NCBI GenBank assembly: GCA_037442105.1
Contig: JBBIQV010000008.1
Location: forward strand, 62,001-90,089
Source: Nitrospiraceae bacterium
Lineage (GTDB): Bacteria; Nitrospirota; Nitrospiria; Nitrospirales; Nitrospiraceae
Reading direction: 5' to 3'
DNA length: 28,089 bases
How positions within the stretch are numbered: the stretch's first letter is position 1; every line of letters begins with the position of its first letter. Below the pieces are notes generated by a model, which saw nothing but the letters and a program-made list of their open reading frames with translations, searched no databases and was not told the origin of the DNA. Positions 22,132-28,089 of this stretch are shown here, piece after piece. The translations under genes were made by a program, and so were the position numbers.

Positions 22132-22638
22132 ATGAGTCGCGCATCCTCCGTCATTCCACATCTCACCGACATCCTGATCCGTGAGGAGGCGGAATGCGAC
22201 CGGCTTCTGGCGACGCTTCGTGAAGAGCGCACGGCGATCCGCCGGCTGACCCTCTCAGATTTTGGCACCATCAACGAGCACCGCCTTAACATTCTGCATT
22301 CTCTCGACGAGATTGAGGCGGAGCGACGGCATGCGATGGATCATCTTGCCGAGATGTGGGGAGCCCCGCCCAATTCCTTGACCCTTCAGGCTGTCATCGA
22401 TCGATTCAAGACGTCGGGAAACCAGGGGCTCGAAGAGCAGCACACGAGGCTGGCGGGAAAAATTCGCGCTGCACGCGAGGAGATTGCTTTCAACGCGCGG
22501 CTGATCGACGGTATCCAGACCTTCATCAAAAAAGCCCTTCACGCCTGGACCGACGCGGCGCCCAAAGAAGGGATTTATTCATCGTCCGGAGCGTGTCGTC
22601 CGGACGGGACCGGCGCCCTTCTGCGGCAGCGAGGGTAA
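22132..22638 (+). CDS. flgN: Export chaperone FlgN
   Basis: Helical protein between flgM and flgK with FNARLI and C-terminal GIYSSSG; ATG 22132 follows AAGGAG. Confidence 0.85.
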   Translation: MSRASSVIPHLTDILIREEAECDRLLATLREERTAIRRLTLSDFGTINEHRLNILHSLDEIEAERRHAMDHLAEMWGAPPNSLTLQAVIDRFKTSGNQGLEEQHTRLAGKIRAAREEIAFNARLIDGIQTFIKKALHAWTDAAPKEGIYSSSGACRPDGTGALLRQRG

Positions 22639-22643
22639 GCGAT

Positions 22644-24668
22644 ATGGGACTTAACGGACTATTCGACATCGCGCGGAGTGCGTTGACGACGACTCAACAA
22701 GCTCTGACCGTCGCGGGCCATAACGTCGCCAATGTGAATACGCCGGGGTATTCCCGGCAGGAAGCGATCCTGACCGAGCGGTCGCCGCTGTACGGTCAGC
22801 CGGGCATGATCGGGACCGGAGTCCAGGCGACCCGCATCCGGCGCGTCGTTGATCAATTCGTGAACCGGGAGCTCACCGGCGTCCGGCAGACTCTCGGCCG
22901 GCTGACGCTGTCCCGAGAAGAACTGTTCCGACTCCAGGCCATAATCGGCGATACGAACGATCAGGGCATCGGCGCGCGGCTCAATGGATTCTTCATGGGA
23001 TTGCAGGACGTCGCCTCCAGCCCGGCCGACGTGACCCCCCGTTCGGTTCTTTTGGCAAGAGCCTCGCTCCTCGCCGCGGGTCTGAATCAAGTGGCCTCCG
23101 ATCTCTCGACCGCCCGTCTTACCCTGAATCAACAGATCAAGCAGACCGTCACCGAAATCAACAGCCTGACCAAGCAGATCGCCGAGCTGAACGACAAGAT
23201 CGTTTCCGCCGAGGCGGGAGGACAACAGGCGAACGATTTGCGCGATCAACGCGACGTGCTCCTCAACGACCTGGCCGAGCGCATCGACATGACGACCTTC
23301 GAATCGGGGACCGGTGCCGTCTCCGTCTTTGCCGCTCGCGGGCAGGTTATCGTAGAAGGAGGCACGACGCGCCAGTTGGCCGCCGTTGAATCGTTGGACA
23401 ACGACGGGCTCGTCGATATCGGGTACGACACGGGCGGCACAAGGACGCTGAACATCGCGTCATTGATCACGAACGGTCGACTCCGGGGACTACTCGACGT
23501 GCGAGACACGACCATTCCGGACCTTCAGCGGTCGTTCGATCGGTTAGCCGCCACGCTGGTGAACGAGATGAACCAGATTCACCGGCAGGGGTATGGGTTG
23601 GATGGATCGACGAAGCTCGATTTCTTCGCTCCGCTGGCCGTGACGACCCACGCGGATGCCGACAATCAGGGGAGCGGGAGCTTGAGCAATGCCGCTATCG
23701 CAGCGAACAACTTGCTCACGTTCCATGACTATGAGATCCGGTTCACCTCAGCGACCGCCTATTCGATCGTCGATACCACGACCGGCTCGACCATCAGGGG
23801 CAATTACACAGGCACGGCCATCACGGCTCCGACAGTGGATGCCCCGATTTCCATCATCACAGGTTCCAACGAAACCCTGACCGTAACGGTCGACGGCACC
23901 ACGTCCGGCACGATCACCCTCGCCGGAGCCGCATCGCCCGGTCAGGCCTACACTTCAGGAGCTGCACTGGCACTCGAACTCCAGAACAAAATCAACGCCG
24001 ATGCAACGCTGCAGGCTGCCGCCCGTACGGTTGCCGTGACCTACGACACCACGACCAGCCGCTTCGTCATCACGTCCAATTCGACGAGCGCGACCTCGGC
24101 GGTCGACGTGACCGGTGGAACCGCCCGCGCCACTCTCGGTCTGGTCAGCGGCACGAGCACGGCCGCCACCGGAACCTATAGCGGCCCGCGGACGCTGGCG
24201 TTCGACGGCCTGAGCCTCACACTCAGCGGCACCCCCGCAGCCAACGATGTCTTCACGATCAATTCGTACGATGATGCCGCCAGGAACGTGAGTGTGGCGC
24301 TCACCAGCGGAGCGAAGATCGCGGCGTCGTCAAGCCCGACCGGTGTCCCCGGCAATAACGACAACGTCTTGGCGTTGGTGGCCCTCCAGAATCGGACATT
24401 TGCCGGCCTGGGCACAGCAACGCTGGGCGACGCCTACCGAAACGCGGCCGCCGGAATCGGCGTGACGGCCCAGACCGCCGACCGAGAGCTGCAAGCTCAA
24501 GACATTCTCAGAGAACAGATCGACACGTTTCGTGCACAGGTGTCCGGCGTGTCGATCGACGAAGAGCTGGTCGATCTCATCAAGTATCAGCGAGGATTCG
24601 AGGCGGCATCCCGATTGATCGTGATCACGGACGAAATGTTCCAGATGCTGCTCTCGATCAAGCGATAG
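22644..24668 (+). CDS. flgK: Hook-associated protein FlgK (674 aa)
   Basis: GHNVANVNTPGYSRQ, ANDLRDQRD, VSGVSIDEELVDLIKYQRGFEAASR. Start reassigned to ATG 22644. Confidence 0.97.
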   Translation: MGLNGLFDIARSALTTTQQALTVAGHNVANVNTPGYSRQEAILTERSPLYGQPGMIGTGVQATRIRRVVDQFVNRELTGVRQTLGRLTLSREELFRLQAIIGDTNDQGIGARLNGFFMGLQDVASSPADVTPRSVLLARASLLAAGLNQVASDLSTARLTLNQQIKQTVTEINSLTKQIAELNDKIVSAEAGGQQANDLRDQRDVLLNDLAERIDMTTFESGTGAVSVFAARGQVIVEGGTTRQLAAVESLDNDGLVDIGYDTGGTRTLNIASLITNGRLRGLLDVRDTTIPDLQRSFDRLAATLVNEMNQIHRQGYGLDGSTKLDFFAPLAVTTHADADNQGSGSLSNAAIAANNLLTFHDYEIRFTSATAYSIVDTTTGSTIRGNYTGTAITAPTVDAPISIITGSNETLTVTVDGTTSGTITLAGAASPGQAYTSGAALALELQNKINADATLQAAARTVAVTYDTTTSRFVITSNSTSATSAVDVTGGTARATLGLVSGTSTAATGTYSGPRTLAFDGLSLTLSGTPAANDVFTINSYDDAARNVSVALTSGAKIAASSSPTGVPGNNDNVLALVALQNRTFAGLGTATLGDAYRNAAAGIGVTAQTADRELQAQDILREQIDTFRAQVSGVSIDEELVDLIKYQRGFEAASRLIVITDEMFQMLLSIKR

Positions 24669-24684
24669 ACATGGAGTACATGCC

Positions 24685-26451
24685 ATGCGAGTGACCGAAC
24701 AACAGACCTTCGGCATTCTCGTCAACAACCTCCAGCGGTCCCGCGTCAGAGCCTTGGAAGCTCAACAACAGGTGTCGACGGGAAAACGCGTCCGTCAGCC
24801 CTCCGACGACCCGAGCGCATTCAACCACATCGCGCTGGACAAGGCCTCGCTGTCATCCATCGAGCAGCGCCTCCGAAACATCGACTTCGGCCGAACCCGC
24901 CTCGATCTCACCGATAAGGTTCTCGGCGATGCGACATTGAGCCTGGCGCGGGCCCAAGAACTTGCCGTCCGGTTCCGCAGCGATGTGTATGGGCCGGCCG
25001 AGCGGACCATCGGTGCACAGGAAGTCCGGCAGATCTTCGGGCAACTGCAACAGACCGCCAATTCGGAACTCAACGGGCGCGCGATCTTCACCGGTACCAG
25101 TACCCACGGCCGTTCCACCGGCCTGTCGATCACTACGCCGGTGACCTTGACCAACGGGACCAACGACACGCTCATTCTCGTCGTGGACGGGACGACCAGC
25201 GGCACCATCGACCTGACTTCCGGAACGGAATCGTTGAGCGGCACCGCGCTCGCCTCGCGTCTGCAAAGCCGGATCAATGCCGACACGGCTCTGAGTAGCC
25301 AAGGGAAGAGCGTCACGGTTACCTTCGATACGGATCATCTCGTCATTGTCTCCAACGGCTACGGTCCCGCTTCCTCGGTCGAGGTCACGGGCGGCACCAG
25401 CCGGTCCTCTCTCGGAATGGCCGGGGGCAGTACCACCACCGGCGCCGTTCCTTTCGCCTTGACGGCCACCGCCCGCGCCGCGTCCTCCAATACGGGCGGG
25501 GGAGTGGTCTCGCAGGGTCGCATTGCCGATGAGAACCGTGTGACCCTGGACGATTACCTTATCCGGTTCAGCTCTTCAACGACCTACGACGTGTATGACC
25601 TCGCCGCTCCGGTCGGCGTGACGGTGAACCCGGCGAATACCGGCGGCGTCATCAAGACCGATGCGGGGGTGGTGAACGCTTCGCAAGTTACGTTGCATAA
25701 CTACCAGATTCAATTCACGTCCAGCACGCAGTATTCCGTCGTCGACACGACGGCCGGGACCACTCTGTCCAGCGGGAACACCTATGTGCCCGGCAACGGC
25801 ATCACGTTCGATGGGCTGCAGGTTGTGTTGACGAACGGGGATCGCGGCGGCCCCCAAGCCGGCGATACCTTCACTGTCTCGCTGAATGCCAGAACCGTCT
25901 TGGCCAATCAAACGTACAGCACCGGTGCCGCTATCGCTTTCGACGGGCTCCGCATTGCCATCACGAACGGAACCGGTTCACCGGCTGCCGGCGATCGCTT
26001 CACCATTCTCACGGGAGTGCAGTACCAGGGAGACGCGGGCATCCACAACATCGAGGTGGGGACGGACCAGACGGTTCAGACCAACGTGCCCGGCAACCAG
26101 GTATTCACCGGTCCCTCAGTCGATCTGCTCGCTTCCATCAAGAACCTGACCGTTGCGCTCCGGGGAAATTTCGGCAGCGGTATTGCGCAGGGGGTGACCG
26201 ATACGAACCTCTCCCTCAGCCAAATCGGTTCAGTGCAGGGGGAAGTGGGAGCTTTGTCGAATCGCCTGGCCGCGACGTCAAACCGGCTGGAAGAGGCGAA
26301 GGGTTTCTTCACGGAGACCCTGTCCCAGACGGAAGATGTGGACCTGGTCAAGGCGATCTCGGACCTCACTTTGCAGCAATATGCTCTGGAGGCAGCCAGC
26401 CAAACCCTCACCCGCGTTTTTGAAAACACGCTTCTCAAATTCCTCAGGTAA
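24685..26451 (+). CDS. flgL: Hook-associated protein FlgL (enlarged, 588 aa)
   Basis: MRVT...[37 protein letters not shown]...LLKFLR. Confidence 0.96.
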
Positions 26452-26458
26452 TCCGCGA

Positions 26459-26485
26459 TTAAGTTTTTCCAAAATCGGCCGATAC
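26459..26485 (+). promoter_or_regulatory. Sigma28 promoter for csrA-fliW
   Basis: TTAAGTTT-N11-GCCGATAC with canonical spacing, 34 bp before the csrA ATG. Confidence 0.8.
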
Positions 26486-26518
26486 AGATCAGTAGGCGAT
26501 CAGCCAAGGAAGGCGATC

Positions 26519-26764
26519 ATGCTGGTCCTGACCCGCAGGCGTGGTGAAGGTCTCACGATCGGTCCGGATATCCGGGTTGTCGTGCTGGGCGTCAAAGGCG
26601 GCCAAGTCCGGCTCGGCATCGTGGCCCCGATGTCGGTGGAAGTCCATCGCGACGAGGTGTTCGCCAGGGTTCAGGAAGAAAACCGGATTGCGGCCATGAC
26701 GCAGGTCGTTCCGCTCGATGCATTCAGGCGCCTGGTCGAGGTCCATGGCCGGCGAAACAAGTGA
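26519..26764 (+). CDS. csrA: Carbon storage regulator CsrA
   Basis: [15 protein letters not shown]...QVRLGIVAP...VHRDEV, plus the C-terminal EENRIAA extension typical of FliW-associated CsrA. Confidence 0.96.
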
Positions 26765-26773
26765 GGGCAACGC

Positions 26774-27256
26774 ATGAGGTTTTCCACAACGCGTTTCGGG
26801 AATGTGGATGTTCGCCACGACGCCGTCCTGACCTTTCCTTCGGGCATCCTTGGATTCCCGGATTGGACGCGCTATGTGATTCTGGACCACGATACGGACG
26901 CACCGTTCAAGTGGTTGCAATGCGTGGAGCAACCGGACCTGGCCTTCGTGGTCATGGATCCCGCGCTATTCAAGAGTGACTACTCGGTCGAGCTCTCGGC
27001 GGAGGCCTTGGCCGAAGTCAAAGGCGTGGAGTCGGACGACCTTACGCTTGCGGTCATCCTGACAATTCCCTCTGAAGACCCGGCTCGAATCACCGCCAAC
27101 CTGCGCGGGCCGTTGTTGATGAATCCACGGACATCGTTGTGCAAGCAACTCGTCCTGAGCGATTGCTATCCCACCCGCTATCCGCTTTTCCCCATGAGCG
27201 CGTCCGTCGCAGCTCAACGAACCGTCATCCTTCACGAAGTGCCATGCCCGGTGTAA
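26774..27256 (+). CDS. fliW: Flagellar assembly factor FliW
   Basis: TTRFG, FPSGILGF, WLQC, LAFVVMDP, TANLRGPL. Confidence 0.95.
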   Translation: MRFSTTRFGNVDVRHDAVLTFPSGILGFPDWTRYVILDHDTDAPFKWLQCVEQPDLAFVVMDPALFKSDYSVELSAEALAEVKGVESDDLTLAVILTIPSEDPARITANLRGPLLMNPRTSLCKQLVLSDCYPTRYPLFPMSASVAAQRTVILHEVPCPV

Positions 27257-27318
27257 CTCGGATTATATTCAAGAGCGTTGATCCGCATTCGTCTGCCGAG
27301 CATGAGAAACAGGCTGAG

Positions 27319-28089
27319 TGTAGATGGCAAGTTAATTTGTCCGGTGTATGTAGCCCATGATCTGTCCGGTTGTTCCGTTCGAATATTTCAGCCGCACGCC
27401 GAAATTGTTTCGCCCACAATGGGCCTAGGATGGACGATCAGCGGGACGGTCTGACCCACGGGTCTGGCCTCGGTGGGCTCGTCCGGTCTCGATCAGCCGG
27501 CCATCCGCGTGATAGCGCGCCAGACACCGGGGACCTTGGCACACCGCCAGGGTCCCATCCGGATACTCGTGCACCCGGACCGTGACCTTCACATCATGGA
27601 AGCGGTGGGGGTCGGGCGGGATCTGCAGACTCCGGCCCTGAGTCCCGCACCGTATTGTCGTTGGCGACCACGCGGTCTTCTTGGACACAGAGCAGATCGG
27701 CGAGGGGCGTGCCGCTCCATGGCACAAAGGCCGTGCCGGCTTCGGCGGCCGGCACCGCAAAGCGCCGGTTGTAGGCCGGGGGAAACTGCGTGGCCAGATA
27801 CTGGTTGGCCGCGGTCATGTCGGTGATCCCGGCGAGCGCCAACTCTTTGGGCAGCCGATCCTGCAAGGTGCGAAAGACGCGCGCCGACCGGCCCCGCGCT
27901 TCCGGCGAATAGGCGGGAATCAGCGTGATCCCCAGTTGCTGCAAGGCGCGATGGACCTGTGTCAGCCGAGGCTGATCGACCTTGCCTCCGGCCTCGTCGG
28001 TGTACCACTAATGCGAGCCCCGATCCGTAGAGAGGGAACTGAAGAGCCCCTTCGTCTCGATGACTTCCCGCAGGCCCCGAACGCGGCTC
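27319..28089 (-). mobile_element. Right end of an IS1202/ISNCY-like insertion sequence (continues beyond the window)
   Basis: The end reads TGTAGATGGCAAGTTAATTTGTCCGGT...TGTCCGGT, with a terminal TGT and two TGTCCGGT motifs 25 bp apart (27338, 27363), downstream of a DDE transposase remnant. Confidence 0.75.
27425..28089 (-). pseudogene. Degraded DDE transposase (ISNCY/IS1202-like, integrase core)
   Basis: TDRGSH*W..AGGKVD, LGITLIPAYSPEARGRS(A)R..RTLQDRLPKEL, NDNTV, VRVHEYPDG; in-frame TAG at 28008-28010 and a frameshift near 27641. Confidence 0.88.

Follow-up and report, generated by a model that had tools for sequence, protein, structure and literature searches.

The stretch of DNA analysed here (the window, 28,089 nt) is the final part of contig C8 of a metagenome bin (G000; 2.81 Mb, 87% complete) from the Nitrospiraceae, a family of nitrite oxidisers, and the end of the window is also the end of the contig. 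Close to this end lie two intact host genes that serve as controls, csrA (26519..26764, plus strand; above the cut-off of NF002469) and fliW (26774..27256, plus strand; NF009801, E = 2e-42), the latter adjoining from outside a truncated insertion sequence (IS). The IS occupies 27319-28089 on the minus strand and comprises the 3' 771 nt of an element, from its right terminal inverted repeat (27319..27371, minus strand, ~53 nt) to the contig end, with the left inverted repeat lying beyond that end. The window portion corresponds to positions 634-1411 of a reference element of 1413 nt, and intact relatives measure 1.41 kb, are bounded by inverted repeats of 53 nt and encode a transposase of 428 aa. 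Alignments to homologues reach 27319 and go no further, which agrees with the element end proposed in the initial annotation of this DNA. In G001, the sole other genome of the genus, fliW is ~80% identical and no element follows it.

The IS carries the 3' part of a gene for an ISNCY-family DDE transposase (27425..28089, minus strand; NF033594, E = 5e-38 for 27642-28007), truncated by the end of C8. Its score of 131 bits falls below the whole-protein cut-off of NF033594 because the gene is partial; the intact homologue L055 (428 aa) passes that cut-off at 338 against 250 bits. With both the family model and the terminal inverted repeats in agreement, the element is a member of the ISNCY family. 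Judged from its sequence, this copy is dead. An in-frame TAG stop lies at 28008..28010 (minus strand), a 1-nt insertion at 27642..27642 (minus strand) shifts the frame where 79 of 80 homologues have a gap (the insertion also occurs in two run contigs of homologues), and at 27882..27884 (minus strand) a GCG codon for Ala, produced by A>C at 27883, replaces the Glu of the GRSER motif. The column of this last codon holds GAG 61, GAA 16 and GCG 4 times in 81 rows, and the Glu is presumably the third DDE residue, as judged from IS3/IS481-type transposases.

The initial annotation had claimed that the decay of this transposase is dominated by A:T>C:G transversions, and when the copy is compared with its homologues this claim holds. 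The homologue set was built from 171 matched loci, of which 89 passed a length and identity filter and 80 remained after removal of duplicates (74-85% identity). Nine of the ten codons named in the annotation prove to be single A>C or T>G changes on the coding strand: 28085 A>C (68/74 homologues have A), 28082 T>G (T 62/75), 28030 A>C (78/80), 27974 A>C (76/80), 27883 A>C (77/80), 27715 T>G (75/80), 27644 T>G (78/80), 27595 T>G (72/80) and 27540 T>G (80/80). Two further A:T>C:G sites lie outside those codons, at 27971 (A 71/80) and 27695 (A 70/80), so that, besides 27883, five such changes fall in 27971..28085 and five in 27540..27715 (minus strand). The tenth codon, the TAG stop, had been read as T>G; its column holds C 57 and T 23 times, with C in five of the six nearest homologues, and the stop therefore probably arose by C>G, outside the A:T>C:G type.

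At columns with at least 90% conservation (182 A/T and 249 G/C sites) the window's copy has 14 changes, comprising 8 A:T>C:G, 2 A:T>G:C, 1 A:T>T:A, 3 G:C>A:T and no G:C>T:A or G:C>C:G. The share of 8/14 compares with 0.152 expected from host four-fold sites (binomial p = 3.6e-4), and the ratio of A:T>C:G to A:T>G:C is 8:2 against 202:408 at those host sites (Fisher p = 0.0036). This dominance falls to 11/26 at 80% and 14/42 at 70% conservation, thresholds loose enough to let in ordinary lineage divergence. Expressed as a load, the A:T>C:G changes affect 4.4% of conserved A/T sites; the window's copy is thus moderately loaded, and most of the case is carried by its relatives. A second piece of an ISNCY element in G000, the 5' 585 nt of a copy with an open frame at another contig end (C16:55478-56063), is unloaded (1/7 A:T>C:G). 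It may be the other half of the window's copy, but given its clean state and its higher identity to intact copies (87-90%) we regard it as probably separate.

A copy at the contig end of a metagenome bin invites the explanation that its changes come from sequencing, assembly or alignment, and our cross-check drew on assembled run contigs only, at a depth of 4.6-9.4. Run X1, possibly the source of the assembly, spans 23000-28084 with 4 differing letters in 5085. The tables for runs X2 and X3 are identical and were counted as one independent data set; their contig, from another study, covers 27503-27845 (343 nt) with 0 differences and includes 27540, 27595, 27644, 27695 and 27715, an exact match that argues against an assembly error. 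Sites above 27845 have near-identical cover by X1 only, and runs X4-X11 contain next to nothing of this stretch. Furthermore, two records of one insertion from different strains (L353 and L155; 18 differences in 2340 nt) have a common load, and when the same counting is applied to clean copies, to host genes and to 89 distant homologues, the spectra are ordinary. We regard an artefact as barely credible.

Across the whole element, 16 of the 80 homologues have A:T>C:G at 2.5% or more of conserved A/T sites and 43 at no more than 1%. The load is over-dispersed (mean 5.4, variance 35), and in 11 of the 80 the ratio lies above that of the host at p < 0.001. In a FastTree phylogeny with many weak inner branches, loaded copies are scattered on separate branches beside clean sisters. 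Counted against close sisters over the whole element, A:T>C:G makes up 23/26 changes in L155, 25/48 in L151, 21/51 in L150 and 20/41 in L144; the corresponding counts in clean sisters are 0/6 in L141 (the sister of L155), 0/4 in L025 and 1/21 in L116. The mark is family-wide, it lies on single copies, and it is independent across copies. Two ISNCY copies, L028 and L030, from genomes (G351 and G168) whose flagellar genes are ~90% identical, are themselves nearly identical, which suggests recent transfer. Among 89 distantly related ISNCY homologues, most of which belong to other phyla, no clear load was found, a weak test given that few of them are decayed; one frameshifted copy in an alphaproteobacterial record (L059) has 7 A:T>C:G and 6 G:C>T:A in 26 private changes and is too mixed to classify.

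Within ten copies picked for their load, A:T>C:G affects 5.1% of sites at codon positions 1-2 and 4.6% at two-fold third positions; the non-coding ends have 3.9%, and four-fold sites 2/45. Both strands are affected (on the coding strand, 158 A>C changes at 92 sites and 130 T>G changes at 99), and A>G and A>T are rare. The two directions are interspersed (116 runs, 126 expected), which rules out a one-strand tract. No strict sequence motif was found in the loaded copies. T is changed at 6.1-6.4% after a pyrimidine and 2.7-4.1% after a purine, an approximately two-fold effect in which sites are counted repeatedly across copies; TTA is the highest and ATC the lowest context, on few distinct sites, and T before G is not enriched (4.3% against a mean of 4.7%). 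The link to breakage is loose: 23 broken copies have 114/251 A:T>C:G and 57 open-frame copies 116/483, a large number of broken copies are without load, and open frames persist in several of the loaded ones.

The hosts themselves have a different spectrum. Sixteen close pairs, drawn from three genera, were compared at the four-fold sites of their flagellar genes, and the 2981 changes include 202 A:T>C:G and 408 A:T>G:C. In a six-rate likelihood fit the ratio of A:T>C:G to A:T>G:C is 2.8 at IS second positions and 0.49 at host second positions, against 0.56-0.73 at host four-fold sites and 0.28 at IS four-fold sites. There is a mild genome-wide tilt, with A:T>C:G 6-10 times faster than G:C>T:A at four-fold sites, which counts against a clean all-or-none picture. 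Intergenic DNA compared between two genomes of genus g3 (G139 and G216; 24.6 kb, of which 13.6 kb in stretches of more than 400 nt), itself partly under selection, has the ratios of four-fold sites. Between the same genomes, 0 of 3456 window tests over 273 kb were dominated by A:T>C:G (best 7/12, p = 2.5e-5 uncorrected). No IS-like load appeared among the 970 host gene comparisons listed. Tests inside G000 are weaker than those in its relatives; there, the comparison with G001 at flagellar four-fold sites gives no C:G gain in G000 (51 against 102 the other way), and recent duplicates are transition-dominated.

The clearest controls are insertions whose surroundings can be polarised, which the window's own flanks cannot, the nearest genome being ~80% identical. 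In the copy of genome G376 (L353), 22 of 25 private changes are A:T>C:G, affecting 5.3% of 417 A/T sites, compared with 16/261 in host DNA on the same contig (Fisher p = 1e-19), and per A/T site these changes are ~20-fold denser in the element than in the host DNA beside it. The left flank touching the element (3.9 kb) has 3/42, and the right flank, past a 1.3-kb unalignable gap, 5/81, so in G376 the bias ends at the element. A flagellar remnant has 3/94 and its neighbours 5/44. These controls are mostly coding, and four-fold sites alone give 2/231 against 12 expected at the element's rate (p = 4e-4). The remnant is non-mobile, but with 17 non-synonymous and 67 synonymous changes it has lost selection only recently. 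A flagellar cluster of G376 (C1:201.5-211.6 kb; L234, L389, L390) has recent large deletions; in it flhA breaks off at about residue 232 and continues into the tail of a gene homologous to window 22356-24668, with more internal deletions nearby.

In G188, 94% identical in the flank, the insertion site of the G376 copy is empty; given this and its few ordinary changes, the copy is young, yet it is loaded. G376, G188, G520 and G530 share 93-97% identity over the regions compared. The same insertion in a second strain (L155) differs from L353 by 6 substitutions within the element, of which 4 are A:T>C:G, two gained on each side, and by 10 in 947 nt of flank, 2 of them of the A/C-G/T type. Gain of A:T>C:G is thus still ongoing in place in this insertion (n = 4). 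A second genome, G530, repeats the pattern, with 14/18 A:T>C:G in one ISNCY copy (L056, the same as L408) and 6/125 in its flagellar genes; another ISNCY copy there (L407) has 5/14 and an IS3 copy 0/1.

These controls bear on the idea, raised in the initial annotation, of an unusual genome-wide spectrum or a MutT deficiency. A broader version of the idea posits a MutT-type mutator, constant or episodic, acting either in the host itself or in a donor that passed on copies with their load in place. A:T>C:G is indeed the mutT signature in the part of PMC3556519 that was available, and by our own arithmetic the decay-phase rates predict a four-fold GC content near the observed 67-89%. However, mutT is intact in G000 (C33:7642-8133; TIGR00586, 103.6 against 97.9 bits) and has an open frame in all five other genomes with loaded copies, in four of them above the family cut-off; MutS is present, and loss of mutT or mutS was accordingly rejected as the cause. 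The MutT-like enzyme of G000 has FPPAD where a solved MutT (7syc) has FPPAN, and it may for this reason be a weaker 8-oxo-dGTPase. Even so, A:T>C:G at host four-fold sites is half as frequent as A:T>G:C, the 970 host comparisons listed contain nothing resembling the IS load, and host DNA in G376 and G530 has stayed clean over a longer time than the copies have resided there. Changes gained after the strain split also speak against an origin in a donor alone. A mutator is therefore largely refuted for G376 and G530, and we consider it highly unlikely overall; transitions dominate at the synonymous sites of the hosts and in their intergenic and flanking DNA, apart from the mild tilt, and a genome-wide spectrum is not supported as the cause of the excess.

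The excess is not limited to ISNCY elements. In 24 copies of an IS3 family, our choice out of 70 genomes with matches, codon positions 1-2 have 81 A:T>C:G and 34 A:T>G:C, against 161 and 358 in the host; one copy, L426, has 20 against 5, L426 and L423 together supply 36 of the 81, and most copies have few changes. This second family had at one stage been taken for IS30, an assignment replaced by IS3. Some of the loci are composite: an ISNCY copy on G311 C12 (L357) is split by a 2.7-kb insert that contains an IS30 transposase together with a partial IS3 element, and a 3.7-kb block with inverted IS3 pieces on G180 C4 (L339) is duplicated at 100% identity. The excess is real and not an artefact, and it marks two IS families across several Nitrospiraceae genera.

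Other repeated or decaying DNA was examined for the same mark. G000 contains three MITE-like families of dispersed palindromic repeats of 200-350 nt (12, 11 and 5 copies; examples at C16:6709-6924, C1:78803-79009 and C38:18168-18516). Its short palindromic repeats are transition-dominated and without the mark (A:T>C:G 6/90, 4/53 and 3/20). An old non-mobile pseudogene was not found when searched for in five ways in ~3 Mb of relatives' DNA and in G000, and a self-tblastn of G000 gave no well-aligned stops. Thirteen flagellar genes that seemed broken had ordinary spectra, and their apparent breaks were boundaries between genes or slips in the alignment; broken genes in G139 and G216 were start-site miscalls, and the broken flags in host gene comparisons were alignment gaps. 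The frameshifted flagellar region of G434 was set aside as a source of pseudogenes since, at 72% GC, it reads as foreign to the bin; from ~289 kb on C13 (L393-L395) GC rises from 58-60% to 72%, with many flagellar frameshifts, and this is probably foreign sequence joined in. In the relatives tested, then, the excess is not part of the host's general spectrum and, old non-mobile pseudogenes aside, it is IS-confined as far as tested.

Two rivals of the reading that we favour below would also account for such confinement. According to the first, clusters of A:T>C:G changes strike anywhere in the genome, are purged as a block from working genes, and survive only in dispensable DNA. This would explain the clean four-fold sites of host genes and of live IS lineages, and it fits the mild tilt in the hosts and the two of 19 loaded copies that are patchy (L056, with 13/16 changes within 300 nt, and L010, with 10/12; 0/1000 shuffles each). 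But the other 17 are evenly spread on both strands, the G139/G216 intergenic DNA and window tests contain no such clusters (in one genus, with intergenic DNA partly selected), the short repeats of G000 are unmarked, and the two strains sharing the G376 insertion gained single new changes in the same copy (n = 4). We therefore consider untargeted clusters somewhat unlikely.

The second is a dedicated host defence that marks repeated or transposase-bound DNA and drives A:T>C:G until the transposase is dead while sparing flanking genes, in the manner of RIP with another chemistry. The initial annotation had suggested targeted silencing of this kind. The part of that suggestion which places the bias in mobile DNA is borne out by the two IS families and by the boundary in G376; the defence system itself is hypothetical, with no strict motif found. 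In its favour are the nearly two-state, over-dispersed load, the single mutation class on both strands ending at the element, its presence in two unrelated families, the 136 of 206 changes in the ten loaded copies that fall at codon positions 1-2 and so kill the transposase, and the live lineages left untouched at synonymous sites. On the other hand, most copies escape, and the transition-dominated spectra of other repeats and recent duplicates in G000 argue against plain repeat sensing. We consider a purpose-built defence unlikely.

The reading that we favour, tentatively and at slightly less than an even chance, is repeated error-prone re-synthesis of resident IS copies, confined to the locus and producing A:T>C:G far above the host rate. 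A ~20-fold excess inside a 1.4-kb element would mean that its DNA is copied more frequently, or with lower accuracy, than other parts of the genome. We infer that the DNA of a resident copy would be re-synthesised repeatedly outside the replication fork. The trigger could be nicks or abortive strand transfer at the ends by transposase supplied in trans from live copies, or recombination between repeated copies, and the repair synthesis would be bounded by the element. Within the re-synthesised tracts, G (as 8-oxo-dGTP or dGTP) would enter opposite A and escape mismatch repair, and MutY, here without its C-terminal domain, would remove the template A so that C:G becomes fixed. Copies altered in this way would die without descendants, and live lineages would keep their ordinary synonymous spectrum. 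The killing of IS copies would then be a by-product of transposition and repair and not necessarily an evolved defence.

In E. coli, MutY acting on the template A is what fixes such a change. The accessible portion of PMC3556519 describes 8-oxo-dGTP opposite A as leading to A-to-C changes, and it reports that in E. coli mutT strains Pol III, and not the repair polymerases, inserts most 8-oxo-dGTP, which counts against re-synthesis. In G000 the short mutY gene (241 aa, without the C-terminal domain) is followed directly by the mutT-like Nudix gene (C33:7642-8789, L194). MutY falls below its family cut-off in all 41 genomes of the order, and in five the MutY profile match continues through the stop into the next gene; the pair may thus be a split MutY with a full Nudix enzyme as its tail. 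A second MutY-like match lies within a 593-aa open frame (C6:93979-94596). A short MutY common to the whole order cannot alone explain a local effect. In another region of G000 (C44:9240-14088), three consecutive genes resemble an SOS mutagenesis cassette: one of helix-turn-helix type, one similar to Y-family polymerases, and one for a second DnaE (1012 aa). This second DnaE-type polymerase was found in one of five genomes with loaded copies, G000 (four of the five are incomplete), and DnaE2 was rejected as a common cause since the search in the other four hosts with loaded copies did not find it.

Several observations count against re-synthesis as we picture it. The live lineages are clean at four-fold sites (0.28), so an on/off state is needed, which a purpose-built defence would supply. 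Clean copies persist in the same genomes as loaded ones (in G000 and G530: C16 1/7, IS3 0/1, L407 5/14), the palindromic repeats of G000 are unmarked, and some copies are broken and unloaded, others loaded with open frames.

The usual assumption is that bacterial IS copies decay under the ordinary, transition-rich spectrum of the host. In these lineages IS decay can neither serve as a neutral clock nor reveal which mutations the host ordinarily makes, and the mark is either a mutagenic scar from transposition or repeat recombination or a RIP-like bacterial defence. If the latter is true, insertion sequences in bacteria are killed by a process comparable to RIP; if the clusters are instead untargeted, they would still represent a mutational process new to these bacteria. 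No description of IS-confined A:T>C:G hypermutation in bacteria was found in the literature searched, in which coverage of subscription papers is incomplete, and the accessible part of 10.64898/2026.06.30.735404 does not mention Nitrospira.

Among known systems, the spectrum is closest in appearance to that of the MutT-deficient mutator of E. coli as described in the available part of PMC3556519, with almost pure A:T>C:G, both strands affected and a weak context. Here, however, mutT is intact, and the excess lies in single IS copies and is missing from synonymous and flanking host DNA. Fungal RIP works by C-to-T chemistry and involves the RID methyltransferase. It resembles the present case, as far as the accessible text of PMC12543289 goes, in that transposon copies accumulate one class of change and are inactivated by it, whereas single-copy genes escape. 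It differs in that the change here is an A:T transversion and not a C:G>T:A transition, follows no dinucleotide rule, spares other repeats, and occurs in bacteria. Diversity-generating retroelements replace A by any other base on a single strand of a short variable repeat. Like the IS copies, they are bacterial and show hypermutation directed at adenines within a limited stretch, whereas here the change is A>C only, affects both strands and covers the whole element. Finally, in the GC-rich genome of Burkholderia cenocepacia the A:T>C:G rate likewise varies with place, and in the portion of 10.1101/011841 available to us that variation is approximately two-fold and follows chromosome or replication time, compared with ~20-fold in one 1.4-kb element here.
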